DNA of 64,000 nt, taken from positions 144,556-208,555 of the forward strand of contig JAWKNI010000007.1 of the NCBI GenBank assembly GCA_041391785.1, written 5' to 3'. This stretch comes from Flavobacteriales bacterium (GTDB taxonomy: Bacteria; Bacteroidota; Bacteroidia; Flavobacteriales_F; PHOS-HE28). The position numbers were made by a program, and so were the translations under genes. Under the pieces are notes generated by a model. It saw nothing but the letters and a program-made list of their open reading frames with translations. It was not told the origin of the DNA and made no database searches. Each line of letters begins with the position of its first letter. The stretch's first letter is position 1. Positions 2,891 through 25,750 of the stretch are shown piece by piece.

Positions 2891-4845
2891 CGGTGCGGCG
2901 AACAGGGAGGCGGAAGGACGCTGAATGCACAATGCGAGCGCCCCATCGGTGCCTGCATCCGGTGGTTGCACAAGGGTGACATCGTCACCGTGCTGCGGAC
3001 GACATGGTGCACGGGGGCGGCACACGATGTGTACGTGTACACACCAGCGAGATCCGCTGCCGGGTCGATCGAGCCCGCCGGGCACGGGCACTGGGCCGGA
3101 CCAGGTTCCGCCGGCATCAGGTGTAGCCTGTGAGGATGGAGAACAGATCGGCGCTGGCTGCGGAGTGCAAAGGGTGAGTGCTCCGGCGACCGGATCCGAC
3201 AGGACCACATTCACGGTGACCGTCGCACTGGCGAGGGGCAGGGCAGAACCGATCCCGTGTAGGTGTAGTCACCGGCGGCCATCGTGGCCGGATCGAAGAG
3301 CCCACCGATCACCGGTGAAGGTCCGGACCATGATCCACCGGCATCCGGCGTGCCGCCAAGTTGCCCCAGCAATGGCACGGGTGGACTTGTGCACATGCCC
3401 GTCGGTGCCTGCATCTGCCGGAGTGTTGATGGTGACGGTCACATCGGCGCTCTCATCGGGGCACGGCGCTGTGCCAGGGACGGTGTACGTGTAGACGCCG
3501 GGGTTCATGGTCGCTGGATCGACATACCACCGACCACTGCACTCGGTCCGCTCCAGGTTCCGCCTGCATCAGGCGTGCCACCGAGTTGCGCGAAGAGGTC
3601 CGCCGCACCATCGTTGGAGCAGAGGCGATCGCCCCGTCGGTCCCCGGATCGGGCGGTGTGTTGATCGTGACATCCACCGTGGCGGAGACATCGGGGCACG
3701 GAGCGGTACCGGCCACGGTGTACACGTAGGCACCGGAACTCATCGTTGCCGGGTCGATCGACCCGCCGACCACCGGGCTTGGGCCGCTCCAGGTTCCGCC
3801 TGCATCAGGTGTACCGCCGAGCTGTGCGAAGAGATCGGCAGGGGCATCGCTGCTGCACAGGGTGATGTTCCCATCGGTGCCTGCATCTGCCGGAGTGTTG
3901 ATGGTGACGGTCACATCGGCGCTCTCATCGGGGCACGGCGCTGTGCCAGGGACGGTGTACGTGTAGACGCCGGGGTTCATGGTCGCTGGATCGATCATAC
4001 CACCGACCACTGCACTCGGTCCGCTCCAGGTTCCGCCGGCATCAGGCGTGCCACCGAGTTGCGCGAAGAGGTCCGCCGCGCCATCGGTGGAGCAGAGGGT
4101 GATCGCCCCGTCGGTCCCCGGATCGGGCGGTGTGTTGATGGTGACATCCACCGTGGCGGAGACATCGGGGCACGGAGCGGTACCGGCCACGGTGTACACG
4201 TAGGCACCGGAACTCATCGTTGCCGGGTCGATCGACCCGCCGACCACCGGGCTTGGGCCGCTCCAGGTGCCGCCTGCATCAGGTGTACCGCCGAGCTGTG
4301 CGAAGAGATCGGCAGGGGCATCGCTGCTGCATAGGGTGATGCTCCCGTCGGTGCCTGCATCTGCCGGAGTGTTGATGGTGACGGTCACATCGGCGCTCTC
4401 ATCGGGGCACGGCGCGCTTCCATTCACGGTGTACGTGTAGACGCCGGGGTTCATGGTCGCTGGATCGATCATACCACCGACCACTGCACTCGGTCCGCTC
4501 CAGGTTCCACCGGCATCAGGCGTGCCACCGAGTTGCGCGAAGAGGTCCGCCGCAGCATCGGTGGAGCAGAGGGTGATCGCCCCGTCGGTCCCCGGATCGG
4601 GCGGTGTGTTGATCGTGACATCCACCGTGGCGGAGACATCGGGGCACGGAGCGGTACCGGCCACGGTGTACACGTAGGCGCCGGAACTCATCGTTGCCGG
4701 GTCGATCGACCCGCCGACCACCGGGCTTGGGCCGCTCCAGGTTCCGCCTGCATCAGGTGTACCGCCGAGCTGTGCGAAGAGATCGGCAGGGGCATCGCTG
4801 CTGCACAGGATGATGCTCCCATCGGTGCCTGCATCTGCCGGAGTG
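2281..4845 (-). repeat. Tandem near-identical 474-bp (158-aa, i.e. 2x79 aa) coding repeats inside the adhesin gene. Two families, units at 99-100% nucleotide identity.
   Basis: 2281-2416 is identical to 2755-2890 (136/136). Units at about 3640-4114, 4114-4588 and 4588-4845 encode the same 158 aa three times with 2-3 substitutions. More diverged 79-aa repeats continue on both sides (about 200..5330). Confidence 0.85.
2891..3640 (-). pseudogene. Frame-disrupted stretch of the same adhesin gene: at least four small indels inside near-identical repeat copies. Likely sequencing or assembly error, less likely genuine decay.
   Basis: The local copies differ from intact neighbours by 1-bp indels. 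Example: 3601-3640 vs 4075-4115 (agaggcgatcgcc vs agagggtgatcgcc). Example: 3515 (ggatcgacatacc vs ggatcgatcatacc). Example: 2891 (gccgttccggtgcggcg vs gccgttcagcgcggcg). ORFs 2801..3214 and 3269..3508 begin in the true repeat frame and then run into junk. Confidence 0.6.
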
Positions 4846-7736: not shown

Positions 7737-7920
7737 TGTTCGCTTCCGCAACAGTGGTGGGAATGTTGAAAAGCGTGCGTAAAATAGTCTTCGTAACCGC
7801 CTGATCCACAGATGGGACCGCCTTTTGGACGAACACCCATTGGTTGATGATGGATCAAGGGGATCGAATGATGAATGCCTGCTTCGCGCAGGTGGAGTTA
7901 CCGATCATCGATCCACTGGA

Positions 7921-7946
7921 ACAAGAAAGGCCCTTGCATGAGGGCC
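7921..7946 (-). terminator. Intrinsic terminator after adhesin 2 (hairpin ggccct-tgcatg-agggcc, T-run on the minus strand).
   Basis: 6-bp GC-rich stem at 7929-7946. Minus-strand 3' flank is tttcttgt. Confidence 0.4.
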
Positions 7947-7969
7947 GTTCTTGATGATGGGAGGGAGGA

Positions 7970-10900
7970 CTACTTGACCAACGTCACATGGCCCACCAAC
8001 TCCTTTCTGGTCTCCGCTCCATCCACCTCGAAGCGTATGAGGTAGGGGAATACTCCTGGTGGTAGGATCTCGCCTCCGTTGTTTGCACTGCCCAGCCATG
8101 GCTGGTAGGGATCGGTGGTGGAATAGATCACCTGGCCCCAACGGTCGAAGACATACATCTCAAAATCACTGACAGCCGGCACGTTCGAGCTCATCCCCCA
8201 CGCATCATTGATCCCATCACCGTCCGGTGTGAATGCGTTCGGAACGTATGTGAAAAGAATATCATCGATCGTGATGTCGTGGCAGGTGGTGTCGACGCAC
8301 TGGTTCGTGTTCCAAGTCACCAGACAGACAGTGTACACCCCGGGTTCGCGGTCCGAGAACCGGAATTCGGTGTTCTGGTCGGTGGTGCTGAAGAGCCCCG
8401 CGATATCCCATTGGTAGCTGTTCGAGCCTGTCGAGGTGTTGAAGAAGCGGATCGTCGGATCGTTGATGTTCGCAGGGATCGGGCCCCAGGCGAAATCCGC
8501 TTCGACCGGTGGTGGGCCTGTTACGGTCACAGTGCCATCACCCGAACACCCATCGGCATTGCGGATCGAAACACTGTACACCCCCTCACAGGCATTCATC
8601 AATACCGCTTCCGGAGACCAGCTGGCCCCGGCATCATAGCTGTAACTCACCGCTTCGGTGTCCTGGATCTGTACCGTGCCATCACAATCCCCGGAACAGG
8701 TCACGGGTGTGCTTTGCACTGCATCGATCTCCAACTGCACAGGTTCCGAGATCACGACCGATGCGTCATTCGAGCAACCGTTGTCATCACTCACCGCAAG
8801 TCCGTAGGTGCCGGCGCACAACCCTGAAATGTCCATGAGTCCCGGGCCGGCATCTCCGTTGGACCAGGCATAGGAGAGGTCGGTCGCTGCATTACCACCA
8901 ATGACCGTGGCGCTGGCGGTTCCGTCACAGGCTGCGTTGCAGACGGCATCAGTCCATGTCAGGTCGATCACGATGGGGTCCGTCAGGGTCATTTGTACAC
9001 TATCAACAGTGTTGCAGAACGCACCATCGTTCTCCCGCCAGTAGAACCAATGTGTACCACCGCTTCCAACTGGAAGGGTCACAGTGGTCTGCGGAGCACC
9101 GGCATTTGCGAAGACAGCGCCCGCCGGCCCGGTCCATTGCCCCACACCGGTGTTGCCAGGGGTCGCATTCAGCCCGATGCTCAGCGTGCATGAGAAGTCC
9201 GGTTCACCTGCATCAGGAACACCGCAGCATGTGGGGTCGTTCGCAGGTATCACAGTGATATCCAAGGTCGCGTTCGCCACACAACCCGCAGGGCTCGTCA
9301 CGGTGTACACGTAAGTTCCCGAACTTCCGGTGGTGGGGTCGAAGGCATTGGGAATTACCGCACCGGTGGCCGTGGTCCAGGTGCCCCCCGCATCAGGGGT
9401 GCCGCCCAACGAGTCCGTCAGCTGTACGACCGAGGCCGTTGCACAGATGAGGAATGCAGCATCCGTCCCCGCATCGATGGAGGGATCCGGGCCGACCAGA
9501 ACACTGTCCACCACGGCGCATTCCGGATGGCCCACCGGATAAGCCGTCAGGTAGTACCAGGTCGGCGTCGTGGTATAGACTTCCGTGGTCAGGCTTGTGG
9601 GATCGGTAAGCCCGGTGGCCGGGCTCCACACGTATTCCGCAGCTCCGGTGCCGCCACCACAGGTTATCGTTCCGGAGTACAACTGCCCGTTCGACGGGCC
9701 ATTGCCCGATTGAAAAACGTTGTTCCCCTGGTCATTCAGCAGTATGAAGGAGTTCTGGTTGTTGTTCAACCCAAGTGGCGCACCGGTATAACTGATCGTG
9801 ATCGGAGCGCCGGCCGATACAGGTATGTTGAAGGTCGAGAATCCCCCGGCCGCCAGGGTGTATGTATTGGATGTACCGTTCACGACCACCATCACGCTGG
9901 CCTGGCCTAAGAGACCGCCCCATCCATCGTTGGCGGTGTCGAACAGGTTCAACACGTAGGTACAGTTGGCACTTCCGGCATTCAGCAACTGTCCGGCCAT
10001 GGGTTCAGGATCGCTGCAGAGAACGATGTCCGGACCGGCTTCGATCTCCAGCGGCTCCGCGATCGTGAAGGTCACCGTGGTATCGTAGGAGCAGCCGAAG
10101 TTGTCCGTAACGACGAATGTGTACTGATAGTCGCCAGGACCTGTGGGGGTCGCGGTAGCGCTCAGCGGGTCGTTCGGGTCAGTTGTGAGGAATGGTCCGG
10201 ACCACGCAGCCGAATCCGGTGTGGAGCCCATGATCGGAGTGAATTCGACAAGGTCCGGGTACAGGTCCGGGTCGAAGCTGATGTCCCAGTCGCACAGGGA
10301 GCCATCATCCGCGGCCCACAGGTCCACCACGGTGAACGTCCAGGTGCCATTCAATGGGCAACCAACGAAACCGTTCATCGGATTCTCGCTCTCGTAGGTC
10401 CCGGCCGGAAGGGTGATGTTCCCACCGTTGTCGTCCCAAGTGCCATTCGTCGCACTCGGGCTCCAGCAATATTCCCAGCACGTGCCGATCGTTCCGGTGC
10501 TGGGGTCGCCAAGATCCATTCCACCCCCTCCTTGTTGTGTGAAGGTGACGGATTGCCCGTTCGGACAACTCGCAGAGATCACCAGGTCCCCTACGAACGT
10601 GTGCTCTAAACTGGCGCAGATGGTCAACAGGTCGTTCACATCGAGCAACGTCTGCCCTGGGTCGAACTGCGTGAATACGATCTCGCTGGTGAAGGGCACG
10701 CCCTGCAGGTCCGGCAATTGGACCGAAGGCCCGAAGTTGTTCTCCGGTTCGCTGGACCATGTGGTGCCCGCTACTACGGCGGTGAGGTCGATGGTCGCAC
10801 CCAGACAGGTCTCGGTACTGCCCACCGTTCCTTCAAAGGTCGGTGTCGTGCTCACCAGTACCTGCAGGTCCACCAACTCGGAACTGACGCAGTTGTTGTC

Positions 10901-11587
10901 ATCCAACAAGGTCAACTGCACCACATATTCGCCCGGCTCGCTGAAGGAGTGTTGTGCATTCTGTGTGGAAGCGGTCGTGCCATCGTCGAAATCCCAGGTG
11001 TATTGGGTGATGTTGAAACCCATGGCGGCGAATGAGCCGGAACCATCGAACGAAACGACCTCATCAGTGCATACCAAAGCGGGTGCGGCTTCACTCATGA
11101 ACGCGACCGGTATCGGCCGCTCACACGGCTCGTAACACGTGATCACCGCAGCGAATACCCCGGTGCCCGTGTTGTTGGATGTGAATTGCACGGTAAGGCA
11201 ACCGGTCGGGTTCGTGGACGACCCGGAAGTGACCTGCCCCTGGAGGGAATTGCCACTGTAATCCCCGATCAACGGGGCGCTCGTGTTGTCCCCATCATAG
11301 ACCCGGATATGGTCGATCGGTGCTGTCCCGGCAGTGCTCAGGTTGGCGGTGATCCATTGCAAGGAGATCGCACCACCAGGTGTATCCGGACAAACGACAG
11401 CGGTGTAATTCTCATTGTTCCCATATCCACCTGCGCCCTGTCCACCGCTATCCAACAAGGCCCCTTCACAGGCATTTATCGCACCCTGATCGATCTGGTA
11501 GGTGGTCTGGGCCACAAGTTGGGTCGTGGCTGCAAATACCAGCACCGATGGAAAGATGCCTCGCAATTGGAATATCCGCTCGATCAT
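7970..11587 (-). CDS. T9SS type-B-sorted SprB-repeat adhesin (1205 aa). Signal peptide, CUB-like domain, PKD domain, P-domain, SprB repeats, and a gliding-motility-type C-terminal domain.
   Basis: ATG at 11587: MIERIFQLRGIFPSVLVFAATTQLVAQ is a signal peptide (the upstream 53 codons of the track ORF are unlikely). The N-terminal 350 aa are paralogous to the 3453..7736 protein ([17 protein letters not shown]...ITCYEPCERP, YTWDFDDGT, and the P-domain ...GTWTFTVVDLWAADDGSLCDWDISF). SprB repeats are present (DLSYAWSNGDAGPG...CAGTYGLAVSDDNGC). The C-terminus VPNAFTPDGDGINDAWG...FEMYVFDRWGQVIYST matches the T9SS type-B CTD (TIGR04131-like). Confidence 0.85.
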   Translation of the reverse strand: MIERIFQLRGIFPSVLVFAATTQLVAQTTYQIDQGAINACEGALLDSGGQGAGGYGNNENYTAVVCPDTPGGAISLQWITANLSTAGTAPIDHIRVYDGDNTSAPLIGDYSGNSLQGQVTSGSSTNPTGCLTVQFTSNNTGTGVFAAVITCYEPCERPIPVAFMSEAAPALVCTDEVVSFDGSGSFAAMGFNITQYTWDFDDGTTASTQNAQHSFSEPGEYVVQLTLLDDNNCVSSELVDLQVLVSTTPTFEGTVGSTETCLGATIDLTAVVAGTTWSSEPENNFGPSVQLPDLQGVPFTSEIVFTQFDPGQTLLDVNDLLTICASLEHTFVGDLVISASCPNGQSVTFTQQGGGGMDLGDPSTGTIGTCWEYCWSPSATNGTWDDNGGNITLPAGTYESENPMNGFVGCPLNGTWTFTVVDLWAADDGSLCDWDISFDPDLYPDLVEFTPIMGSTPDSAAWSGPFLTTDPNDPLSATATPTGPGDYQYTFVVTDNFGCSYDTTVTFTIAEPLEIEAGPDIVLCSDPEPMAGQLLNAGSANCTYVLNLFDTANDGWGGLLGQASVMVVVNGTSNTYTLAAGGFSTFNIPVSAGAPITISYTGAPLGLNNNQNSFILLNDQGNNVFQSGNGPSNGQLYSGTITCGGGTGAAEYVWSPATGLTDPTSLTTEVYTTTPTWYYLTAYPVGHPECAVVDSVLVGPDPSIDAGTDAAFLICATASVVQLTDSLGGTPDAGGTWTTATGAVIPNAFDPTTGSSGTYVYTVTSPAGCVANATLDITVIPANDPTCCGVPDAGEPDFSCTLSIGLNATPGNTGVGQWTGPAGAVFANAGAPQTTVTLPVGSGGTHWFYWRENDGAFCNTVDSVQMTLTDPIVIDLTWTDAVCNAACDGTASATVIGGNAATDLSYAWSNGDAGPGLMDISGLCAGTYGLAVSDDNGCSNDASVVISEPVQLEIDAVQSTPVTCSGDCDGTVQIQDTEAVSYSYDAGASWSPEAVLMNACEGVYSVSIRNADGCSGDGTVTVTGPPPVEADFAWGPIPANINDPTIRFFNTSTGSNSYQWDIAGLFSTTDQNTEFRFSDREPGVYTVCLVTWNTNQCVDTTCHDITIDDILFTYVPNAFTPDGDGINDAWGMSSNVPAVSDFEMYVFDRWGQVIYSTTDPYQPWLGSANNGGEILPPGVFPYLIRFEVDGAETRKELVGHVTLVK

Positions 11588-11701
11588 GAATGTCTTTCGA
11601 TGTATCCGGCACGTGCCGATGGGTGCAAAGATCGCCGCCCATGGCGACTCGTTCGTGTTGGTTCTGCCGTTAGGATGGGATCCCAACACAATTGGTTGCC
11701 T

Positions 11702-11737
11702 CACAAAAACGAAAAGAGCCCGGAATGCCGGACTCTT
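11702..11737 (-). terminator. Imperfect hairpin plus T-run downstream of the anti-sigma-like gene (possible attenuator ahead of adhesin 2).
   Basis: agagcccgg-aatg-ccggactct is a 9-bp stem with one mismatch. Minus-strand 3' flank is ttcgtttttg. Confidence 0.35.
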
Positions 11738-11758
11738 CTCGATCAATTCGTGATCGGC

Positions 11759-13012
11759 TCAGCGCAGCAGGCCGATCGTACCGTTGTATGATCCCCCGAG
11801 TTTTTCGCCGTCCTTCATTTCAACCATCCACATGTAGTCGCCAGTGGCACACATCTCGCCACGGTTGCCGATGCGCCCGTTCCACGGACGGGTGTGGTCG
11901 GAGGTCTCGTACACGAGCTGGCCGCTCTTCGCGTCGAAGATCGACAGGTGGAACTTGACCCCGAGGGTCTTCAAGGCCTCTGGGATGAACACATCCTCCA
12001 GACCATCTCCATTCGGGGAGAACGTGTCCTGCGCCAGAAGGTCATAATCATTATCGATCTTGATCTTCTGTTCGAACCGGTCCACGCAGCCGTTCTCATT
12101 CGTCACGGTCAGGGACACGGTGTAGGACCCTTTCTTCTTGAAGACATGGTCCGGATGGGCGATCGTTGAGGAAGTGCCATCCCCGAAGTCCCAGACGTGA
12201 TCGTGCCCGCCCTGGCTGCGGTTCTCGAAATGAACGGACGGGACCGTGTTGTCGTACTCCTGTTTCAAATGATTGAAGGCCGCATCGGGTGCTTCATGGA
12301 TCACGATCAGGTCAGAGGCGGGTTTGTTCTGGATATTGCCACCACCCATGGAGGAGTGGGACAGCATCACCTCGTACTTGCCGGCCTTGCTGAAGGTGTG
12401 CGAGGGCTTGGGCTTGTTCGAGAAACTGCCGTCACCGAAGTTCCAAAGGTGCATTCCGGTCCTGGGCATGTTCTCCACATCGAATTCGATGGTGGTACCG
12501 GGGCAACCTTCGGTGACACTGGGGCGGATCGAAACGGCCGTGCTCGCAGCCTCGGGTCCATCCGGACCGTCCGTGCCTGTGATCGCGGTCACCGCTACCG
12601 TCGAGGGCTTATCGTGCGACCCCTTCGATGGGGCCTTCGCCACGTCTTCATCGGCCGTGCTCATTCCCTCACCGGCATCCTTGGCCACCACCGGCTCTCC
12701 GTCCGCACTGCTGTCCAAGGCGCTAGGGGTCACAGACGCCGGCTCGATCTCCAGCTGTGGCGCCTGAATGACAGCGACCTCGCCACTGCCGACCGGGTCC
12801 GGCACCAACATCTGCAATGTGGTGGCAACGGCCAGGCCGCCTCCGAGCAGGAGGACGAATAGTGCCGCGGAAGAATGCCAGGAGGATCGCTTGTCCTCAT
12901 CCAGGCGTTTCTCCAACTGCGCCCAATCGGACGAGTTGTACGGCACCTCATACGGCTCCAAGGCCTCCTTCAACGACCGTTCAAATGCATCCTGACCCTT
13001 CATGTTCCTCAT
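11759..13012 (-). CDS. Single-pass membrane protein. 48-aa cytoplasmic N-terminus, TM helix, Ala/Pro/Ser-rich linker, two PKD domains, and a T9SS type-B C-terminal domain. Putative anti-sigma factor for the upstream ECF sigma.
   Basis: The start is 3 nt after the sigma-factor stop. AALFVLLLGGGLAVATTL is the TM helix. HLWNFGDGSFS and HVWDFGDGTSS are PKD motifs. The C-terminus FSPNGDGLEDVF...FHLSIFDAKSGQLVYETSD...WNG...GDYMWMVE is a type-B CTD. No ZAS motif. Confidence 0.7.
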   Translation of the reverse strand: MRNMKGQDAFERSLKEALEPYEVPYNSSDWAQLEKRLDEDKRSSWHSSAALFVLLLGGGLAVATTLQMLVPDPVGSGEVAVIQAPQLEIEPASVTPSALDSSADGEPVVAKDAGEGMSTADEDVAKAPSKGSHDKPSTVAVTAITGTDGPDGPEAASTAVSIRPSVTEGCPGTTIEFDVENMPRTGMHLWNFGDGSFSNKPKPSHTFSKAGKYEVMLSHSSMGGGNIQNKPASDLIVIHEAPDAAFNHLKQEYDNTVPSVHFENRSQGGHDHVWDFGDGTSSTIAHPDHVFKKKGSYTVSLTVTNENGCVDRFEQKIKIDNDYDLLAQDTFSPNGDGLEDVFIPEALKTLGVKFHLSIFDAKSGQLVYETSDHTRPWNGRIGNRGEMCATGDYMWMVEMKDGEKLGGSYNGTIGLLR

Positions 13013-14938: not shown

Positions 14939-17200
14939 TCAACGCACCACCACCAGGCGCTGTGGAACGGAGATCCCACCGCTTTCCCAACTCACGAAGT
15001 ATACCCCACTGTTCAGCCCCCGCACGTCCATTCGTGTCAGGGCGGAGTTCGCACGGGTCCGCATCAATTCCTGGCCAAGTCCGTTGCGGATCACCCATGT
15101 GCCTGGGGCTGATGGGCCGTTCAACACAAGCTCCACGGTGTTCGTGGCTGGGTTCGGGATGATGCTGAAGAGTATTCCGGAACCATCTCTGGCACCACCG
15201 ACGCTCAGCAGGTCATCACTGCTCCAGTAGGACAGGCCGCCGCGCAGATTCCCGAGCACCATGTCAGGCTTGCCATCCCCATTGAAATCGAACAGGCAGG
15301 GCGCGGTACGCTCCCCTTCACGCAGGTCCATGAAGGTGCTGTCCAACAAGGTCCAGGTCCCGGTGGGGTCCTCCTCGATGCTTCCATAGTGGTACAACCA
15401 TCCGGATTCAGAGCCAAGTAGCATTTCCCGGTCACCGTCCACATTCCGGAAGAGTGCGGGCACGGAGTGGCCGGTCACGTTCGGTGCGACCACGGTCAGC
15501 ACACCACCAAGATCCTCCGTGATCAAGGTCCAGGTCGGTGCACTGGCCGAACCGGTATTGCGGTAGTAGTTCAGGTTCCCGTTCCGCTCGCCAATGATCA
15601 GGTCCTGCAGGCCATCCTCGTCGAGATCGGTGAACAATGGAGTCGCGAACTGACCCACATCGATCGCATCCCCAGTGCCGTCAACCACGTTGGCCTGTGC
15701 CAGTTGGAATTGGGCCACGGGGCCTGTGCTGATGTTCCTGTAGAAATGTATGCGACCCAGCAGGTCGCCGATGTACATGTCCATATCCCCGTCACCATCC
15801 AGATCGCTGAAGGCAGGATAGAAGGATGATCCGATCCCGCTGGAGCTGAGACCCATGTAGTCATCCGTAACGAATTCGAAGGCTGGCGCCAGGGCGGTGC
15901 CCGTATTCCTGTAGTAGGCCATCCTTCCACTGTACTGGTCAGGAGGGACGAAATAGCCATAATTGGATACCAGCAGATCCATCCTGCCATCGCCATCGGC
16001 ATCAAAGGCCACCGGGTAGGCCCCTTCACCGTGTTCAAGCATACGGTCCTGAAAGAGGTTCTGCTGCACGAATTCGAAGTCCGGGGCGGCATCCGTACCA
16101 ACGTTCCTGTAATACCACATGCTCGCGGTGTTGTGGGCCAGCGAAGTGGCACTCGGGCTGCAGATCAGGTCCCGTCTCCCATCGTTATCCACATCCTCAT
16201 AGTAGGCTCCGGGGAAGATGGCCAGGTCCACCGATTGGTCATCGCTCGGGAAGTCGGTATCCACCGCGGTCATGAAGGCGAGGTCCACCGTGCCACCATT
16301 GTACAAGCCCACAAGGTTGTTGTACGCGATGTCACCGATCAATAGATCCTTGTCCAGGTCCCCATCCAGGTCAAGTGCAAGCACGGTGCTGCCCGCGTGC
16401 GCTTCCGCCTTGGCGATGGCTGCCGCGATCTCTTCGTCATTCGTACCCATTTCAGGTGCCGGTACATTCGGTGAACAAGGCGCGTTCAACTCCACCGTGT
16501 TGTTGTTGGCGTTCTCCACGAAGGAACCCCAGCACTTGTTCCGAAGCTCGAACTTGAGGCTGTCGCACGTGCCATACAACTCCATGCTCAGGTTCTTGTG
16601 GTACTCCATCAGTGAACCGACCAGGCTGAAGGTCAGCAGGTCGAGGTCGCCGTCGCCATCCACGTCCTCGATCGCAGGCAGGTCGACGGCCGAGACGTAC
16701 AGGTTCACCACCAACGAGGCACCACTCGGGGATACGTAGTTGGAGAAGGTGCGGAAGGGAGCCGCTTGTTCGAATGCGATCCCATCCGGTCCACTGGTGT
16801 TCTTGTATACGGTGAAACCCGCGCTGGTGTAAGCGAAGATGTCCTCCTTGCCATCGCAGTTGTAATCCCGGAAGAGCACCCAATCGTGCAACTCCTTGAA
16901 CGGGTGAACGTCATCGTACTCGCGTGAGATCCGATACGCCATGGGACCGCTCGCACCGTTGTTCAGGAGCGTAATGAAAGAATTGCCGGAGCGATCGAAC
17001 AGGAAGAGGTCCTTCAGGCCATCCCCGTTCAGGTCGATATCGCTCACTTGAACGAAGTTCGCTCCCCCGGCCCAGGCAAGGTCCAATGTCTGGCCCTGGC
17101 GGGTCACCGGAACGGACCCGTCGAAATAGAGGTTCCATTGGGCCTGCACGGCCACGGACTGGACCACAAGGAGCGCGAAGAGCAGTGGGTTCTTGGACAT
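14939..17200 (-). CDS. FG-GAP/VCBS repeat (integrin-alpha-like) secreted protein with a T9SS type-A C-terminal sorting domain.
   Basis: ATG at 17200: MSKNPLLFALLVVQSVAVQAQ is a signal peptide. Repeated FDxDGDGxxDL motifs are FG-GAP-like. The C-terminus SIIPNPATNTVELVL...GVYFVSWESGGISVPQRLVVVR is a Por_Secre_tail. Confidence 0.8.
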   Translation of the reverse strand: MSKNPLLFALLVVQSVAVQAQWNLYFDGSVPVTRQGQTLDLAWAGGANFVQVSDIDLNGDGLKDLFLFDRSGNSFITLLNNGASGPMAYRISREYDDVHPFKELHDWVLFRDYNCDGKEDIFAYTSAGFTVYKNTSGPDGIAFEQAAPFRTFSNYVSPSGASLVVNLYVSAVDLPAIEDVDGDGDLDLLTFSLVGSLMEYHKNLSMELYGTCDSLKFELRNKCWGSFVENANNNTVELNAPCSPNVPAPEMGTNDEEIAAAIAKAEAHAGSTVLALDLDGDLDKDLLIGDIAYNNLVGLYNGGTVDLAFMTAVDTDFPSDDQSVDLAIFPGAYYEDVDNDGRRDLICSPSATSLAHNTASMWYYRNVGTDAAPDFEFVQQNLFQDRMLEHGEGAYPVAFDADGDGRMDLLVSNYGYFVPPDQYSGRMAYYRNTGTALAPAFEFVTDDYMGLSSSGIGSSFYPAFSDLDGDGDMDMYIGDLLGRIHFYRNISTGPVAQFQLAQANVVDGTGDAIDVGQFATPLFTDLDEDGLQDLIIGERNGNLNYYRNTGSASAPTWTLITEDLGGVLTVVAPNVTGHSVPALFRNVDGDREMLLGSESGWLYHYGSIEEDPTGTWTLLDSTFMDLREGERTAPCLFDFNGDGKPDMVLGNLRGGLSYWSSDDLLSVGGARDGSGILFSIIPNPATNTVELVLNGPSAPGTWVIRNGLGQELMRTRANSALTRMDVRGLNSGVYFVSWESGGISVPQRLVVVR

Positions 17201-17361
17201 GATCGATCGATATTCCGGGCAAAGTTCGTCACTTTCACTTCCCTTCACCATCCATTCCAACGACCGTCCACGGGCGCCCAAGGTTGGGTGGTCCGGACAC
17301 CATGCTGACCAACTCCGGCAAGGGTTCTTCCGAAGGGCCCGCTGGCGATGGGCAACAACGC

Positions 17362-17392: not shown

Positions 17393-20300
17393 ATGCAGAA
17401 TAGAGGCGCGCTATGGATCTTCACCATTCTTCTGGCGCTCGCGTGCTTGTGGCAATTGTCCTTCTCATTGTTCACATCGCGATTGGAGACCAAAGCCCGC
17501 GTGGAAGCCGGCTATTCGGTGGATTCATTGCAGGAGGCCAACCCCGCCACGGCCGACCTGGACCGGGATTCGCTGGAGCTGATCTACGAGAACCGTTACC
17601 TCAGGGCGCACAGCGAGGATGAGATCTATCCCGTATTCGGTTACAGTTATGCCGAGTGCAAGGCACGTGAGATGAACCTGGGCCTTGATCTCAAGGGCGG
17701 TATGGCGGTCACTTTGGAAGTGAGCGTACCGGAATTGGTGGTGAACCTGAGCGAGAACAGCAAGGATCCCGCTTTCGTGCAGGCCATCGCGAACGCACGT
17801 GAACGGCAGAAGGATGCCACCTCCGATTTCATCACGCTATTCGGTGAGGAATACGCGAAGATCCCCGGCCGCGGCCCGCTCTCGGCCATCTTCTACACAC
17901 CCGAGCGCAAGGACATGTTCGATCGGGAAGGTTCGGATGAGGACTACCTGGCAGCATTGCGGAAAGAAGCGGATGCCGCGTTGAACAACACCGAACGTAT
18001 CATGCGGACCCGTATCGACAAGTTCGGTGTCGCACAACCGGTGATCCAGAAGCAGAGCTTCACCGGAAGGATCCAGATCGAACTCCCTGGTGTGAAGGAC
18101 AAGGATCGTGTGCGCAAGGTGTTGCAGAGCACAGCGAATCTTGAGTTTTGGGAGACGGTGGACAATGAGACCGTATTCCCGGTGTTGCAACAGGTCAATG
18201 ACCGCTTGGGTGCCATGGCTTCGAATGACACCACCGTGGCCGCCGATGGAGGGTTCGGGCGCACCCTTTCCACCGGCGTTGAGGTGAAGGGTGCTTCCAC
18301 CGGCGTGGAGAGCAGTGTGATCGGATTCCTGGAGAGCAATGCCCCTGTGGACAAGACGACTTGGTTCAACTTCGACCGGGTGACGTTCGCCAGTGGCAGT
18401 GCGGATCTGGTGCCGGACAGTTCCGATGAGCAACTGTCCAACCTGGTGGAGATCCTGAAAGCCTACCCGGAGGTTCGCCTGAAGATCGGTGGCTACACCG
18501 ATAATACCGGGAATGATGCGGCCAACTTGAAGCTCTCTCAGGATCGTGCGGATGCTGTGCGCAATGCACTGGTCGCAAAAGGGGTCGCAGGTGACCGCCT
18601 TGAAGCAGAAGGGTACGGGTCGCAGCATCCGGTCGCGGACAATGCCACGGCTGAGGGCCGTGCGCAGAACCGCCGCATGGCGCTACGTGTGCTGGCCACC
18701 GGAGCCGATACCGCCACTGCCGTGACCGACTCTGCAGAGGTGGATACCACCAATGCCGAAATGACCGAAGCCGAGCGTGCCGAATTGCTGCGCAAGAACC
18801 CGTTGTTCGCATTGCTGCAGCCCACCAACCAGGCTAAAGGACCGGTCGTGGGCAGTGCACGTGTTGCCGATACGGCGCAGGTGAACACCATGCTCCGCTC
18901 GGCCACCATGCGGTCCTTGTTGCCTGCCGATACGCGCCTCGCCTGGAGTGCAAAACCACAGACATTCGACCTGCAGGATGGGGGCAAGGCACAGTTCCTC
19001 AGCCTGTATGCATTGAAGGTCCCGCGCGGTGGAAAGCCGCGACTGGACGGGAGTTCCATCGTGAATGCGAACCAGGATTTCGATGTGAAGGGCGAGGTCG
19101 AGGTGTCCATGCAAATGAACCCTGAAGGTGCCCAGACCTGGAAGCTGATGACCGGTGAGAACGTGGGACGACAGGTGGCCATCGTGCTGGATGACCTGGT
19201 GTACAGCGCGCCGGTCGTGCAGACCGAGATCGCGGGTGGGCGCTCCACCATCTCCATGGGTTCCGGTGACCTGAACAAGCAGATCCAGGAGGCGGATGAC
19301 CTTGCGAACATCCTGAAGGCAGGGGCCCTTCCTGCTCCGGCACGGATCATCGATGAGACCGTCGTTGGACCGTCCCTCGGCAAGGACAACGTGAACAAGG
19401 GGTTGATGTCCTTCGGCATCGCCCTCCTCATGGTGCTCATCTACATGGTTCTCTACTATGCCCGCGCTGGTTGGGTGGCCGATCTGGCCCTCATCGTGAA
19501 CCTGTTCGTGCTGGTGGGAGCCCTTGCCTCGTTGCAGGCGGCTCTTACGTTGCCGGGCATCGCAGGTATCGTGCTTACCATGGGTATGGCCGTGGATGCA
19601 AACGTGCTCATCTACGAACGCATTCGGGAGGAATTGCGCCATGGCAAGATGATCAAATCGGCTGTGGACCTCGGATACAAGGGCGCCATGTCGGCGATCA
19701 TCGACTCCAACGTGACGACCTTGATCATCGCTGTGATCCTGTTGATCTTCGGCTCCGGACCGGTGCAAGGCTTCGCCACCACCCTGGGGCTTGGTATCCT
19801 CACCTCCCTGTTCACAGCCCTCTTCCTTTCACGCATGATCATCACCGGTTTGCTGGAGAAGGGCAAGGACTTCAAGGTGTGGAACAACTGGAGCAAGAAC
19901 GTGTTCGTGGGAGCGAACTACGACTTCATGAGCAAGCGGAAGTATTTCTACGCCTTCAGCGGGGTGATCATCGCGGCGGGCATCTTCTCCATGGTCACGA
20001 ACGGCTTCAACTGGGGCGTGGATTTCAGCGGTGGCCGTACCTACGTGGTGAAGTTCACCGATGGTGTGGATGTCGAAAGCGTCCGTTCCGCGTTGGAACC
20101 CAATTTCGTGACGGATGAGGGTGTGCAGAGCACCGTGAACGTCAAGACCTATGGCAGCGACCGCCAGATGAAGGTGACCACCAACTTCCTCTCCACCGAG
20201 GGTGGGACCGAGGTGGATGCCGTTGTGGATGAACGCCTGAATACCGGCCTGGCCACCTTGGGCAACGATTACGAGATCACCGAATCCCGCAAGGTGGATC

Positions 20301-20848
20301 CGACCATCAGCGATGACATCAAGACCAATGCGGTCACCTCCTTGGTCATCGCCCTTGCGCTCATCTTCGTTTACATCGCCTTCCGGTTCCGTAACTGGCA
20401 GTTCGGTCTTGGTGGCCTGCTGAGCCTGGTGCACGATGCATTGATCGTACTCGGCCTGTACTCCCTGCTGTACAAGGTGATGCCGTTCTCCATGGAGATA
20501 GACGAAGCGTTCATCGCTGCGATCCTGACGGTGATCGGTTACTCCATCAACGATACCGTGGTCGTGTACGACCGTATCCGAGAGTACCTGGGAGATCACA
20601 AACGGGAGGCTTATTCGGTGGTGATCAACAAGGCCATCAACTCCACCCTGGGCCGTACAATGAACATCTCGTTGACCACCTTGTTGGTGCTCTTCGTGAT
20701 CTTCTTCTTCGGCGGTGTTTCCATCAAGGGCTTTGTCTTCGCATTGTTGGTCGGTATCGGCGTCGGTACCTATTCCTCCGTATTCGTTGCCAGCGCCATT
20801 GTTACGGACCTGTTGAAAGGCAAGGACCCCGCAAGGACGGGCCAATAG
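17393..20848 (+). CDS. secDF: Protein translocase subunit SecDF (fusion), 1151 aa, with an OmpA-like peptidoglycan-binding domain inserted in the SecD periplasmic P1 region.
   Basis: SecD motifs are present (RIDKFGVAQPVIQKQSFTGRIQIELPGV; TM bundle LIYMVLYYARAGWVADLALIVN...). The SecF part follows (FVGANYDFMSKRKYFYAFS...). Residues about 322-440 carry a classic OmpA C-terminal domain (VTFASGSADL...IGGYTDNTGNDAANLKLSQDRADAVRNALVAKGV...NRRMALRV). Confidence 0.9.
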   Translation: MQNRGALWIFTILLALACLWQLSFSLFTSRLETKARVEAGYSVDSLQEANPATADLDRDSLELIYENRYLRAHSEDEIYPVFGYSYAECKAREMNLGLDLKGGMAVTLEVSVPELVVNLSENSKDPAFVQAIANARERQKDATSDFITLFGEEYAKIPGRGPLSAIFYTPERKDMFDREGSDEDYLAALRKEADAALNNTERIMRTRIDKFGVAQPVIQKQSFTGRIQIELPGVKDKDRVRKVLQSTANLEFWETVDNETVFPVLQQVNDRLGAMASNDTTVAADGGFGRTLSTGVEVKGASTGVESSVIGFLESNAPVDKTTWFNFDRVTFASGSADLVPDSSDEQLSNLVEILKAYPEVRLKIGGYTDNTGNDAANLKLSQDRADAVRNALVAKGVAGDRLEAEGYGSQHPVADNATAEGRAQNRRMALRVLATGADTATAVTDSAEVDTTNAEMTEAERAELLRKNPLFALLQPTNQAKGPVVGSARVADTAQVNTMLRSATMRSLLPADTRLAWSAKPQTFDLQDGGKAQFLSLYALKVPRGGKPRLDGSSIVNANQDFDVKGEVEVSMQMNPEGAQTWKLMTGENVGRQVAIVLDDLVYSAPVVQTEIAGGRSTISMGSGDLNKQIQEADDLANILKAGALPAPARIIDETVVGPSLGKDNVNKGLMSFGIALLMVLIYMVLYYARAGWVADLALIVNLFVLVGALASLQAALTLPGIAGIVLTMGMAVDANVLIYERIREELRHGKMIKSAVDLGYKGAMSAIIDSNVTTLIIAVILLIFGSGPVQGFATTLGLGILTSLFTALFLSRMIITGLLEKGKDFKVWNNWSKNVFVGANYDFMSKRKYFYAFSGVIIAAGIFSMVTNGFNWGVDFSGGRTYVVKFTDGVDVESVRSALEPNFVTDEGVQSTVNVKTYGSDRQMKVTTNFLSTEGGTEVDAVVDERLNTGLATLGNDYEITESRKVDPTISDDIKTNAVTSLVIALALIFVYIAFRFRNWQFGLGGLLSLVHDALIVLGLYSLLYKVMPFSMEIDEAFIAAILTVIGYSINDTVVVYDRIREYLGDHKREAYSVVINKAINSTLGRTMNISLTTLLVLFVIFFFGGVSIKGFVFALLVGIGVGTYSSVFVASAIVTDLLKGKDPARTGQ

Positions 20849-20949
20849 GGCGCTCCATTTCATGATGCGCTTCCTCCCAGGACGGAGGGAGCGCGTCGTG
20901 CTTTCCGGCTCTCGGACACCGACCGTTGAGTGGATACCTTTGCAGCCCC

Positions 20950-21231
20950 ATGCCGGTCCCCCTCATCTTCGATATCAGTGGTGGCGAATTCATCGTCGTC
21001 CTTCTCTTCGTGCTGCTCTTCTTCGGGGCGAAGGGAATCCCGGACATCGCACGTTCCATGGGGCGTGCATTGCGGCAGGTGCGCGATGCGAGCAACGAAG
21101 TGCAGCGCGAGATCAATAAGGGCGCGCACGAGGTGAGACGGTCCATGGAGGAGCAGCGGCGCACTCTCGAGTCCCGTCCGACCACTCCTCCTGTAGCGCC
21201 CCCACCGCCGCCTTCCGACACCAGGGAGTGA
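20950..21231 (+). CDS. tatA: Twin-arginine translocase subunit TatA/E family (93 aa).
   Basis: GEFIVVLLFVLLFFGAKGIPDIARSMGRALRQV is a TM plus amphipathic helix. Pro-rich tail. ATG at 20950 (the track M1 at 20926 is TTG). Confidence 0.75.
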   Translation: MPVPLIFDISGGEFIVVLLFVLLFFGAKGIPDIARSMGRALRQVRDASNEVQREINKGAHEVRRSMEEQRRTLESRPTTPPVAPPPPPSDTRE

Positions 21232-21409
21232 ATCGTCCCCTTCAGTGTGGATCCTGGTCCTGGCTTGCCCTGAAGCTGGGGCTGGACCTTGTTCAAATAT
21301 TTTTCCTGACGGGTGCATTCCGGGGGGGGTGTTCAAAGAAAAACCACCATTTTACATCAACGCCCCCCTTCGCTGATATACCTTCGCGCCAGAAAATACC
21401 CAAAGATCC

Positions 21410-23660: not shown

Positions 23661-23740
23661 CCGGGGGCTGTTGGGCAATGATGGATCTGCTTATCTTCGC
23701 CCGGACCTCAAAAAGAACGGACCATTTTCATCACCACCAG

Positions 23741-25750
23741 ATGACGATACGGAAGATCCTGGCCTCCCTCTCATTGGCCCTGCTGTGCACCACCAGCGCC
23801 ATGGCGCAAAGCAAATTGGCCGAGGAGGCCGATGAGGCGTTCAACAAGGGGTTCTATTTCAATGCGATAGAACTGTACAAGAAGGCCTACACCGTGGAGA
23901 AGAAGGCCAGCGACAAGGCTGCGCTCATCTTCAAGGTGGCCGAGAGCTATCGGGCTCTGGGCGATCCCCAGCAGAGCGAGGTGTGGTACGACAAGGCCAA
24001 CAAGGCCCAGTACACCGATCCGATAACCTACTACTGGATCGGAGAAGCATTGAAGCAGCAGGGCAAGTACCCCGAGGCGATCGCGGCCTACAACCGTTAC
24101 AAGGAGAAGAAACCCGGGGATGCCCGCGCCGATGCGAGCATCGCTGCCTGCCAGATGGCCCAGAAGTGGAAGGACAGCCCCACCCGCTACAGCGTGGACC
24201 CTGAAGTGCTGCTGAACACACCGGAGTATGAGTTCACGCCGGCCTTCGCGGACAAGAAGAACGAAAGTATCGTCTTCACCAGCACCCGCTCCGGCGCCAG
24301 CGGAACGGAAACGGACCAGATCATCGGTACTTCGTTCAGCGATCTCTTCGCCAGCACCCGTGACCGGTTGGGCAAGTGGAGCGAGCCGGTGAAACTGCCC
24401 ACGGAATTGAACACGTTCGGGAATGAGGGCGCGCCCATCTTCAACAGCAAGCGCAACCTGATGTACTTCACGCGTTGCCCGATGGAAAAGAAGAAGGTCT
24501 ATGGGTGCGACATCTGGGTGAGCAAGAAAGTGGGCAACAATTACAGTGCACCGGAAATGCTGGCCCTGAAGCCGAATGCAGGCAAGGATGATACCCTGAC
24601 CGTGGGTCATCCGGCGCTTTCCCCGAACGACGATGTGCTGGTCTTCGCCAGTGACATGAAACTGCCCGGCAGCAAGGGCGGCAAGGACCTGTATTATGTG
24701 AAACTGGACAAGGACGGCAAGCCGGTCGGCTCACCCGTGAACCTGGGGGCGGAGATCAACACCTCCAAGGATGAGCTGTTCCCATTCATCCGGCAGGATG
24801 GCAGCCTCTACTACTCCACCACGGGCCTTGCCGGCATGGGTGGCATGGACATGTTCCGAGCGGAAAAGTCCGGCGACAACTCCTGGACCGCTCCGGATAA
24901 CCTGAAAGCACCGTTGAACAGCGCTTCGGATGATTTCGGGATCATCTTCGATGGTGAGAACGACCGAGGGTTCTTCACCAGCAACCGCCCCGGTGGCAAG
25001 GGACAGGATGACATCTGGCGCTTCTTCATGCCGGACATGGAGTTCGCATTGCAAGGGACCGCTTATGACAAGTCGACCGGACAGCCGCTTTCCGGTGCGA
25101 AGATCTCGGTGGTCGGCACCAATGGAAGCAATTTCAGCGCCCTCACCGACGACAATGGCGGCTTCAGTTTTGCGGAGAACGGTAATGACCGGTACATCAA
25201 GGAGAACACCAGCTACAGCATCCTTGCAGAGAAAGAGGGCTACCTCGTGGTGAAGGATCAGGTGACCACTGTGGGCCTGAACGAAAGCACGACTTTCGTG
25301 AAGGAGTACTTCCTGCAACCGGCGAACAAGGATGTGACGATCAAGCTGCCTGAAGTTCAATATGACCTGGGCAAGTATGCGTTGCGTGAGGAAGGCAAGG
25401 ACTCCCTGGAGACCCTCTATCAGACGCTCATCGACAACCCCACGATCGTGATCGAGCTTTCCGCACACACGGACTCACGGGACAGCGATGCCCGCAACAT
25501 GGTGCTTTCACAGAACCGTGCACAGAGCTGCGTGAACTACCTGGTGACCAAGGGTATCGATCCTGCGCGGATGGTGCCCAAAGGTTATGGCGAGTCGAAA
25601 CTGCGGATCACGGACGCCCAGATCAAGGCCATGAAAACGAAAGAGGAGCAGGAGGCCGCGCACCAGCAGAACCGACGCACCGAGTTCCGCGTGCTCAGCT
25701 GGGACTATGTGCCGAAGGAAGGAGGTGGAGAACCGACCCCGAACAATTAG
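23741..25750 (+). CDS. OmpA-family outer-membrane/periplasmic protein. Signal peptide, TPR repeats, TolB-like beta-propeller, carboxypeptidase-regulatory-like domain, and a C-terminal OmpA domain.
   Basis: MTIRKILASLSLALLCTTSAMAQ is a signal peptide (ATG at 23741). TPR-like motifs (YFNAIELYKKAY, WYWIGEALKQQGKYPEAIAAY). C-terminal OmpA motif (IELSAHTDSRDSDARNMVLSQNRAQSCVNYLVTKGI...NRRTEFRVL). Confidence 0.8.
   Translation: MTIRKILASLSLALLCTTSAMAQSKLAEEADEAFNKGFYFNAIELYKKAYTVEKKASDKAALIFKVAESYRALGDPQQSEVWYDKANKAQYTDPITYYWIGEALKQQGKYPEAIAAYNRYKEKKPGDARADASIAACQMAQKWKDSPTRYSVDPEVLLNTPEYEFTPAFADKKNESIVFTSTRSGASGTETDQIIGTSFSDLFASTRDRLGKWSEPVKLPTELNTFGNEGAPIFNSKRNLMYFTRCPMEKKKVYGCDIWVSKKVGNNYSAPEMLALKPNAGKDDTLTVGHPALSPNDDVLVFASDMKLPGSKGGKDLYYVKLDKDGKPVGSPVNLGAEINTSKDELFPFIRQDGSLYYSTTGLAGMGGMDMFRAEKSGDNSWTAPDNLKAPLNSASDDFGIIFDGENDRGFFTSNRPGGKGQDDIWRFFMPDMEFALQGTAYDKSTGQPLSGAKISVVGTNGSNFSALTDDNGGFSFAENGNDRYIKENTSYSILAEKEGYLVVKDQVTTVGLNESTTFVKEYFLQPANKDVTIKLPEVQYDLGKYALREEGKDSLETLYQTLIDNPTIVIELSAHTDSRDSDARNMVLSQNRAQSCVNYLVTKGIDPARMVPKGYGESKLRITDAQIKAMKTKEEQEAAHQQNRRTEFRVLSWDYVPKEGGGEPTPNN

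Follow-up and report, generated by a model that had tools for sequence, protein, structure and literature searches.

The SecDF protein encoded in a 64,000-nt stretch of DNA from a Flavobacteriales bacterium (GenBank assembly GCA_041391785.1; the whole stretch is referred to below as the window) carries a domain of the peptidoglycan-binding type within its moving periplasmic head, and this arrangement is undescribed. The same architecture recurs in one clade of uncultured Flavobacteriales and is not confined to the source genome. The initial annotation had proposed both the presence of this domain and its novelty, and the literature on SecDF/SecD-OmpA fusions, the SecDF P1 head in Bacteroidetes, DUF937-OmpA and PPase-OmpA yielded no paper describing it.

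Results

The Host Gene Is a Complete secDF in Its Usual Locus

The reading frame over secDF is uninterrupted, and the Pfam domains follow each other in the order SecD_1st, OmpA, SecDF_P1_head and SecD_SecF_C (Table 1). SecD_SecF_C (PF02355) scored 270 bits over two stretches, Sec_GG (PF07549) was also matched in two stretches, and two membrane halves with 12 TM helices were recognized, in agreement with the helices of the AF2 model. The NCBIfam equivalog of Bacteroidota SecDF (NF009585, 993 positions) scored 1199 bits (cutoff 1037), again in two stretches, the second of which pairs aa 436–1145 with profile positions 272–982. The best Foldseek matches of the SecDF model were the SecDF structures 5YHF, 5XAP and 3AQP, with E-values down to 1e-34. 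The P1 base and head are both present, since PF21760 and PF22599 exceed their cutoffs and the protein aligns with the P1 domain of Thermus thermophilus on either side of the insert: the SecD_1st region with residues 60–132, where LEFWET corresponds to the Thermus LEFRIV, and aa 544–665 with residues 153–269. The remainder of the P1 head that follows the insert was found in relatives lacking the module too.

The equivalents of the T. thermophilus Asp and Arg, D735 and R1088, were unchanged in 69 of 69 homologs, and the proton-path residues of the module-bearing SecDF are intact. The Thermus D340 is reportedly essential. Canonical SecDF (3AQP and 5YHF from T. thermophilus, 5XAP from D. radiodurans) shares with this protein the 12 TM helices, the P1 base and head, P4 and the proton-path Asp/Arg, whereas its solved structures are without a peptidoglycan-binding module and the protein studied here has a module of about 150 aa plus linkers in the P1 head.

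The gene order mdh / FG-GAP / secDF / tatA / GSIII was identical in genomes with and without the module, and this shared synteny indicates that the gene is in all probability the housekeeping orthologue of the organism. A specialized second secDF (a paralogue) was rejected on the basis of the loci compared, in which module-plus and module-minus genes occupy one syntenic slot. The tatA-like gene directly downstream keeps the same position in all related loci. No MotA-like gene was detected among the ten neighboring ORFs scanned, and scanning the window for Rfam families and tRNAs gave nothing relevant. The window also contains a PorE-like gene 3 kb downstream, with T9SS cargo genes close by.

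Table 1. Coordinates in the window of secDF, its parts and the adjacent tatA-like gene.
Feature	Position (nt)	Residues (aa)	Strand	Evidence
secDF gene, SecD/SecF fusion	17393..20848	1151 aa	+	ORF, Pfam, NF009585, Foldseek, synteny
SecD_1st, N-terminal part of P1 base	17987..18154	199–254	+	Pfam PF21760
Hinge strand LEFWET closing SecD_1st	18140–18157	250–255	+	Alignment to T. thermophilus
N-side linker, disordered	18224..18250	~278–286	+	AF2 pLDDT <50 at aa 280–284
N-terminal extension of module: beta-hairpin, helix, DKTTWFNFDR lead-in	18251..18382	287–330	+	AF2, conservation
OmpA-like fold	18383..18673	331–427	+	Pfam PF00691, PDB sequence matches, Foldseek
D370, in OmpA-like fold	18500–18502	370	+	
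R385, in OmpA-like fold	18545–18547	385	+	
NRR motif, in OmpA-like fold		426–428	+	
C-side linker, acidic, A/D/T/S-rich, disordered	18698..18766	~436–458	+	AF2 pLDDT <50 at aa 438–455
Rest of P1 head: clade-specific elaboration and Pfam P1_head	18767..19336	548–648 (PF22599)	+	Pfam PF22599
D735, equivalent of T. thermophilus SecDF D340 (TM4, proton path)	19595..19597	735	+	3AQP alignment, residue counting
R1088, equivalent of T. thermophilus SecDF R671 (TM11)	20654..20656	1088	+	3AQP alignment
tatA-like gene, directly downstream of secDF	20926..21231		+	Pfam TatA_B_E, E=1.3e-12

Extent and Predicted Fold of the Inserted Module

The OmpA match (PF00691) reached 80.1 bits (E=1.6e-22), three times the gathering cutoff of 27.2, and covered model positions 1–98 of 98, between SecD_1st and the P1-head domain. 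NCBIfam and PDB matches, together with an AF2 model of the module with a pLDDT of 92 and a pTM of 0.87, agreed with this identification. The location in the P1 head put forward earlier was also confirmed, as the LEFWET/LEFRIV alignment sets the insert at about residues 133–152 of Thermus SecDF, with the module some 30 residues beyond the base-to-head hinge and between disordered acidic linkers.

Compared with module-free relatives, the insertion extends over aa ~283–445 (nt 18239–18727) and stands in place of a low-complexity loop. The distance between two conserved anchors had a median of 304 aa in module-bearing and 168 aa in module-free sequences; the difference of about 136 aa matches the roughly 140 aa of extra length first estimated. 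The span originally assigned to the domain, 18358–18710, encloses the Pfam match, and the motifs quoted for it are read in the SecDF frame, but the span itself is out of frame. It also recognized the OmpA domain while missing a conserved N-terminal extension of about 40 aa: the inserted unit is a module of about 150 aa (aa 287–435) in which a beta-hairpin and a helix precede the OmpA fold. In the AF2 model this extension consists of strands at 287–291 and 297–301 and a helix at 305–315, all with high pLDDT, its motif G.E..L..F......DKTTWF.FDR is kept in SecDF-borne and free-standing copies, and in the PDB sequence search it aligned to the N-terminal region of YfiB. At about 10 aa, the linker on the N-side is short; among the 46 homologs it varies in length and its sequence is unconserved. 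The C-side linker has a median length of about 35 aa and is composed of 23% A, 16% D and 16% T.

The inserted domain is predicted to have the beta/alpha/beta/alpha-beta-beta fold of OmpA C-terminal domains. The module model superposed on solved peptidoglycan-binding domains (OmpA C-domain, Pal, TagL, YfiB) with an rmsd of 1.1–2.2 Å; Foldseek matched the OmpA of Capnocytophaga at 1.1 Å, and also the complexes of A. baumannii OmpA (AbOmpA) with DAP, 3TD4 and 3TD5, the latter being the AbOmpA-pentapeptide structure. MotB, PomB and TagL domains were among the sequence or fold matches. The PDB sequence matches comprised Rv0899/ArfA, YiaD, OprF, PA0833 and AbOmpA, the best of them (88 bits, ~45–50% identity over 100 aa) being the C domain of ArfA/Rv0899 of M. 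tuberculosis, YiaD of E. coli and PA0833 of P. aeruginosa. PA0833 and YiaD were among the best fold matches as well, with about 135 columns aligned, including part of the extension. ArfA, YiaD and PA0833 are OmpA-like proteins anchored in the inner membrane, free-standing and outside any translocon component, whereas the SecDF module is within one. PA0833 binds peptidoglycan in vitro (PMC5974059). Taken together, the HMM score, the predicted structure and the 46 independent homologous clusters leave no room for a chance match.

Ligand Residues and Selection

The module contains the motif TD..G....N..LS..RA, in which the Asp and the Arg are 15 residues apart. From the motif spacing and the AbOmpA sequence, D370 and R385 are presumably the counterparts of D271 and R286 of AbOmpA. 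In that protein, Asp271 and Arg286 bind diaminopimelate (PMC5974059). D370, R385 and the NRR motif were 100% conserved in the 166 copies compared (46 SecDF-borne and 120 others), and all the ligand residues stayed invariant in module sequences diverging down to 56% identity. The dN/dS ratio was 0.18 for the module, compared with 0.28 in the neighboring P1 region and 0.50 in the linkers; these values are rough, as dS (~1.3) approaches saturation. The 46 clusters and 23 species included no copy that was decayed or truncated. Purifying selection acts on the module where it is present.

Distribution and Origin of the Module

Module-bearing SecDF makes up at least 46 protein clusters and occurs in at least 23 GTDB species, all of them uncultured Flavobacteriales, and in 23 of the best 80 GTDB species loci. 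The sequences came from NCBI, JGI, ENA and Logan assemblies, mostly metagenomes, with contigs of up to 3.9 Mb. These carriers were already in public databases, unremarked and named only SecD or SecD/SecF fusion protein. The insertion is not common in Bacteroidota SecDF: the OmpA domain was missing from the SecDF of 74 of the 74 nearest module-free relatives, and the NF009585 profile contains none. A search of representatives clustered at 50% identity, a level at which the carrier clade merges, returned a single SecD-type entry (P0248, a 751-aa fragment), and its top ranks for the module were multi-repeat OmpA proteins.

In NJ trees, which are without bootstrap and blurred by recombination, the 46 SecDF-borne modules were monophyletic against the 120 others. 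Distances of module and core were correlated with r=0.53, compared to r=0.55 between the N-terminal and C-terminal parts of the core. The module in SecDF appears from these comparisons to have a single origin. A recent foreign acquisition was ruled out, as no GC or skew anomaly was observed at the module and its divergence follows that of the host gene. In the core tree, sequences with and without the module were interleaved, which rules out a clean module-plus clade.

Alleles With and Without the Module

Module-free alleles hold a length-variable, low-complexity loop of 45–80 aa at the insertion site. The closest comparison was offered by two contigs, L003 and L004, that are 97% identical over 23 kb and differ by exactly the module cassette, with ~545 nt in L003 and ~135 nt of unrelated sequence in L004. 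The L003 cassette is flanked by short DSL-encoding repeats (GACAGCCTG), and a simple deletion between them was rejected because the ~135 nt of the L004 allele are unrelated to either flank. Two more sister pairs, one member with and one without the module, were found at 89–92% nucleotide identity. The near-identity of P0010 and P0046 is due in part to a 2.6-kb recombination tract and does not reflect same-species status. Alleles with and without the module are swapped by short recombination tracts, and the module is an optional allele, dispensable for SecDF. Since its loss within a species was accompanied by no visible compensating change in the 23-kb neighborhood, SecDF function does not require the module, and any benefit from it is conditional.

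The Same Module on Other Hosts

In other Bacteroidota, the same module was found fused to the C-terminus of membrane pyrophosphatases and to DUF937 proteins, and it also occurs on small single-pass membrane anchors. The DUF937- and PPase-borne copies were 57–71% identical over about 90% of aa 283–445, the N-terminal extension included. The modules of DUF937-TM-OmpA and PPase-OmpA are sister to the SecDF-borne copies and share with them inner-membrane hosts and A/P/T-rich linkers; in those proteins the module is C-terminal, whereas in SecDF it is internal and joined to the host at both ends. The module represents a distinct, highly conserved OmpA-like subfamily, with a hairpin and helix extension, that is uncharacterized and unnamed.

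Discussion

These results are best explained, and probably so, by an ordinary SecDF to which an optional peptidoglycan-binding module, acquired once, was added, tying the P1 head to the sacculus. An ancestor of the uncultured Flavobacteriales clade would have gained the periplasmic module of about 150 aa a single time. Its landing site would be a surface loop of the P1 head, long, acidic and disordered, and the module would hang from the head on flexible linkers of ~10 aa and ~35 aa. D370 and R385 would bind the diaminopimelate-containing stem peptide, as in other OmpA-like domains, and this binding would tie the SecDF head, and with it the translocon, non-covalently to the sacculus. In this way the export site would gain a positional anchor or a fulcrum under the wall, while the transport chemistry would stay unchanged. 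Tethering to peptidoglycan by the module is suggested by the conserved ligand residues. The SecDF mechanism depends on a swing of the P1 head by ~100 degrees; against tethering, a wall-bound head might hinder this swing, and the linker on the N-side has only some 10 aa.

Other ion-driven or envelope-spanning inner-membrane machines also grip peptidoglycan with an OmpA-like domain carried on a flexible linker, namely the MotB/PomB stators and, by analogy, TagL/TssL of the T6SS. In these machines it forms the C-terminal part of a single-pass subunit, whereas in SecDF the domain is internal, lies in a loop of the moving head of a 12-TM RND-type protein and is dispensable; peptidoglycan anchoring of the MotB/PomB type is essential for function. 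Such a stator has a single N-terminal TM helix with the ion-binding Asp, then a plug or linker and the OmpA-like domain, and pairs with MotA/PomA. This type was ruled out for the present protein, a 12-TM SecDF with an internal domain, and the resemblance is one of principle only. PorE is, like this SecDF, a component of a Bacteroidota secretion machine with an OmpA_C-like domain, and its structure 6TOP was among the fold matches of the module, but PorE is an outer-membrane-associated lipoprotein that acts in a different secretion step. The OmpA_C-like domain of the T9SS protein PorE (PG1058) binds a peptidoglycan fragment (PMC7192894), and a further report describes this domain as essential for PorE function (PMC12773672).

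Alternatively, the module, with its OmpA-like fold retained, could be mainly a protein-protein interaction or regulatory element comparable to YfiB, and might bring a periplasmic chaperone, part of the T9SS or some other envelope factor to the site where the translocon releases its products. YfiB captures its partner through a conformational change of its N-terminal segment, and the alignment of the conserved extension with this region agrees with such a role, as does the T9SS context of the locus, with its PorE-like and cargo genes. The SecDF P1 head has also been proposed to recruit SurA and contact BAM (PMC9987972). Nevertheless, the diaminopimelate-binding Asp/Arg and NRR are invariant, and the occurrence of the module on hosts with no relation to one another (PPases, DUF937 proteins, simple membrane anchors) favors a generic ligand such as peptidoglycan over a SecDF-specific partner. 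Moreover, YfiB, on which this reading is modeled, is itself a peptidoglycan binder. An interaction element is for these reasons considered unlikely.

Slightly less likely still is that the module is an effectively neutral passenger, caught by chance in a permissive, disordered and hypervariable loop, spread by recombination and with no effect on export or the envelope. The length-variable, low-complexity nature of the insertion site, the recombination tracts at the locus and a presence or absence that varies within species and between sister species would all fit such a passenger. A neutral domain should degrade, however, and the copies are intact; besides, dN/dS is lower in the module than elsewhere in the region, and well below that of its own linkers, and its ligand residues resisted the divergence described above. 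Finally, an assembly chimera or a gene-calling error fusing an OmpA-family gene to secDF, to which the predominance of metagenome assemblies might point, is refuted by the single unbroken reading frame in the window, the recurrence of the architecture in 46 clusters from four sources and 23 GTDB species, the conserved junctions and the co-divergence of module and host gene.

Under the favored explanation of an ordinary SecDF with an optional tether, pinning the head to the sacculus might go further and form part of the functional mechanics, as a fulcrum or stator for the proton-driven stroke or as a means of fixing export sites, although we regard this extension as speculative and rather improbable. 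In the latter case, the sites would be held under the wall for hand-over to the outer-membrane and T9SS machinery. If the extension were true, the module on membrane pyrophosphatases would indicate that Bacteroidota generally anchor ion-driven inner-membrane machines to peptidoglycan, a habit unrecognized so far, and balancing or habitat-dependent selection would maintain both alleles within species.

SecDF is thought to swing its P1 head to pull or pass on emerging polypeptides. A recent proposal also gives it a role in bridging the periplasm towards chaperones and BAM (PMC6028853, PMC9987972). A SecDF head with a putative anchor is a natural experiment on how much freedom of the head the mechanism needs and on the placement of the export site relative to the wall, and it comes with a natural control, as the module is present in some and absent from others of a set of near-identical strains; in practice, its use is limited by the fact that all carriers are uncultured. 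In addition, the membrane pyrophosphatases and DUF937 proteins that bear this module point to an unstudied class of connections from the inner membrane to the wall among Bacteroidota.

An OmpA-like module in the P1 head of SecDF

All of the features examined as defining SecDF and the OmpA-like domain family were found in the SecDF encoded in the window, which has a G+C content of 59%. The initial annotation had placed an OmpA-like domain at nt 18358–18710, and these limits enclose a match to the full PF00691 model that scored far above the gathering threshold; the motifs then quoted are also present in the sequence. The region aa ~328–433 was additionally matched by YiaD-, LptF-, PA1041- and YfiB-type OmpA models in the NCBIfam search. 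NF009585, the NCBIfam equivalog for Bacteroidota SecDF (993 positions), matched with 1199 bits in two pieces, and since the second starts at aa 436 (profile position 272), the profile is broken exactly at the OmpA match. Unlike the window SecDF, this curated profile has no OmpA domain. D735 and R1088, the equivalents of Thermus D340 and R671, were invariant in 69 homologs.

Features of the window; numbers in brackets give the conserved gene order shared with related contigs
Feature	Position	Strand	Details
PKD/CHU_C genes (1)	3453–13012	-	Large PKD proteins with CHU_C ends
ECF-type sigma factor (2)
Malate dehydrogenase (3)
FG-GAP/T9SS-tail protein (4)	14939–17281	-	Opposite strand to secDF; Por_Secre_tail
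secDF ORF (5)	17393–20848	+	1151 aa
SecD_1st	aa 199–254		Pfam
OmpA PF00691	aa 331–427 (nt 18383–18673)		Pfam; E=1.6e-22, 80.1 bits (gathering score 27.2), full model 1–98
SecDF_P1_head	aa 548–648		Pfam
Sec_GG			Pfam
SecD_SecF_C			Pfam; 270 bits, two stretches
tatA (6)
Type III glutamine synthetase (7)
TPR-PD40-OmpA protein (8)	23678–25750	+	690 aa; TPR, PD40 (WD40-like), CarboxypepD_reg and OmpA domains
AIR-synthase-related gene (9)
Release factor gene (10)			PCRF/RF-1 domains
tRNA cluster	36147–38088	+	tRNA-Thr, Tyr, Gly, Thr, 395-aa ORF, tRNA-Trp
395-aa ORF	36742–37929	+	Within the tRNA cluster

Among the 120 best homolog clusters, PF00691 was detected in 46 (1126–1192 aa, 60–100% identity to the query), and the remaining 74 lacked it (930–1097 aa, mostly 1015–1065). 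In the alignment with module-free proteins, similarity to the query extended up to aa ~282 and resumed at aa ~445. The median span between the flanking anchors was 304 aa with the module versus 168 aa without it, and this net gain of 136 aa agrees with the extra length of about 140 aa estimated initially. When P1 was aligned to the T. thermophilus SecDF structure (3AQP), the hinge strand LEFWET (aa 250–255) fell on Thermus LEFRIV, and aa 258–270 and 544–665 corresponded to Thermus residues 120–132 and 153–269. This alignment places the insertion in the moving head subdomain, as first proposed, ~30 residues past the base-to-head hinge.

When full-length SecDF was modeled with AF2 (69-sequence alignment, mean pLDDT 76), aa 287–435 were confidently folded (block pLDDT 84–93) and bounded by stretches with pLDDT < 50 at aa 280–284 and 438–455. 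The inserted unit is an independent domain held on flexible linkers of ~10 and ~35 aa. At the same site, module-free relatives carry a repetitive, acidic, D/T/S/A-rich loop of variable length, roughly 45–80 aa, with DSLA/DTxA repeats in the proteins P0046, P0048, P0055, P0071, P0079 and P0106. In this clade, SecDF thus has an unusual, probably disordered appendage on its P1 head also where the OmpA module is lacking.

Nature of the module and its other hosts

The inserted unit exceeds the 97-aa Pfam domain, as ~40 residues upstream of the match are also conserved (G.E..L..F......DKTTWF.FDR) and form a beta-hairpin and a helix in the AF2 model. The similarity of this extension is the one observation that would suggest a YfiB-like, partner-binding role for the module. 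Modeled alone (66 homologs; pLDDT 92, pTM 0.87), the module found its best structural matches in peptidoglycan-binding OmpA-like domains, namely those of PA0833, OprF, YiaD, PorE, TagL, Pal and MotB, together with Capnocytophaga OmpA (rmsd 1.1 Å over 105 columns) and A. baumannii OmpA (AbOmpA) in complex with diaminopimelate and with a pentapeptide (3TD4, 3TD5). By sequence, the nearest solved relatives were the C domain of M. tuberculosis Rv0899/ArfA and E. coli YiaD, with 88 bits each. D370, R385 and NRR (426–428) were invariant in all 46 SecDF-borne and all 120 other copies of the module. From the motif and the 15-residue spacing, we take D370 and R385 to be equivalent to AbOmpA Asp271 and Arg286. 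In AbOmpA, these two residues bind diaminopimelate (PMC5974059).

Outside SecDF, a search with aa 283–445 alone matched a large family of small proteins annotated as "OmpA family" and spread over many phyla, with 57–70% identity over ~90% of the query length. A profile-free exhaustive search with the module returned 632 representatives at E < 1e-30; a word-indexed search with the 163-aa insert, which apparently favored short proteins, returned no SecDF, not even P0001, identical to the window protein. The commonest hosts were widespread, uncharacterized proteins of ~400 aa in which an N-terminal DUF937 domain is followed by a linker and a C-terminal module (P0250, P0251, P0257, P0258 and P0450–P0483; Saprospiraceae, Lewinellaceae and others). 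The closest non-SecDF copies, with up to 71% identity, were of two kinds: small proteins combining an A/P-rich linker with a single membrane helix at the N-terminus, and C-terminal fusions following the last helix of a membrane H+/Na+-pyrophosphatase (PF03030 + PF00691). The latter comprised dozens of Bacteroidota clusters (P0122, P0383–P0482), the listed sequences all being fragments, under the names Spirosoma, Ferruginibacter, Chitinophagales, Kaistella, Flavobacterium and Flavobacteriales. Judging from these hosts, the usual habitat of the module is the periplasmic face of inner-membrane proteins.

Genomic setting

Related contigs, with or without the module, had the same gene order as the window. 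For the loci compared, this shared synteny argues that secDF is a single, orthologous housekeeping gene rather than a specialized SecDF paralog. Within this order, gene content differed slightly: in several relatives (L001, 11831–12763; L003, 13825–14751), a Na_Ca_ex gene separates tatA from the gene for type III glutamine synthetase, and it is missing from locus L086 and from the window (21232–21409). The PKD/CHU_C and FG-GAP proteins, predicted type IX secretion cargo, flank the ECF-type sigma factor upstream of secDF. The tRNA cluster is an ordinary one, with a layout akin to that of the usual tuf region. The TPR-PD40-OmpA gene kept its position, three genes downstream of secDF, in all related loci; its four-domain architecture is the one reported for the T9SS component PorE (PMC12773672).

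Distribution and evolution of the module

All of the carriers found were uncultured "Flavobacteriales bacterium" MAGs, many of them from activated sludge and lakes, judging by isolate names. The module was present in 23 of the 80 best loci of the GTDB species set. SecDF-borne modules were monophyletic against 120 other copies, no compositional anomaly was detected in the module, and its mean divergence (0.30) was close to that of the SecDF core (0.31). Module and core distances correlated (r=0.53) about as well as those of the two core halves (r=0.55). These data fit a single old capture followed by co-evolution with SecDF.

Pairwise dN/dS was lowest in the module (0.18), higher in adjacent P1 sequence (0.28) and highest in the linkers (0.50), rough values given a dS of ~1.3. 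The module is under purifying selection, which contradicts the view of it as a neutral passenger; an artefact is excluded.

In the SecDF-core tree, module-plus and module-minus sequences were interleaved, and in three near-identical protein pairs the loop was the sole difference. L003 (GCA_020635725.1) and L004 (ERZ15185560) share 97% identity over 23 kb; where L003 has a ~545-nt segment with the module, L004 has ~135 nt of unrelated low-complexity sequence, and divergence is raised over a short distance at the left end of the swap. The other two pairs come from sister species with ~89–92% nucleotide identity. The tree and the pairs together show that the module is not a fixed trait but one optional form of a hypervariable loop; it is dispensable, and its alleles are swapped by homologous recombination. 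In one of these two pairs, L001 (~9985–12600) and L002, a 2.6-kb tract extending over the 3′ half of secDF plus tatA and the Na/Ca-exchanger gene was 98–100% identical in genomes otherwise ~89% identical, a sequence pattern that indicates recent inter-species homologous recombination at this locus.

Discussion

The carrier proteins were already in public databases, labeled only "SecD" or "SecD/SecF fusion protein". No description of a SecDF with an OmpA-like domain, of DUF937-OmpA or of PPase-OmpA was found in our full-text literature search, and no solved SecDF structure contains such a domain. The window SecDF is not a MotB-type stator; what the two would share is a principle, the grip on the wall by an inner-membrane machine that is driven by ions.

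SecDF is thought to bind the emerging chain with P1 and to draw on the proton gradient in moving it off SecY (PMC6028853), and recruitment of SurA and contact with BAM have been proposed for its periplasmic domains (PMC9987972). The module would bind the DAP-containing stem peptide of peptidoglycan and thereby tie the SecDF head and the surrounding translocon to the sacculus, the tether envisaged in the initial annotation. Anchored near the hinge on its two linkers, it could keep the machine under the wall while the head tip is not frozen. The function is inferred, the domain dispensable and every host uncultured. Natural controls with and without the module exist, and the head of SecDF would be a surprising site for a wall anchor.
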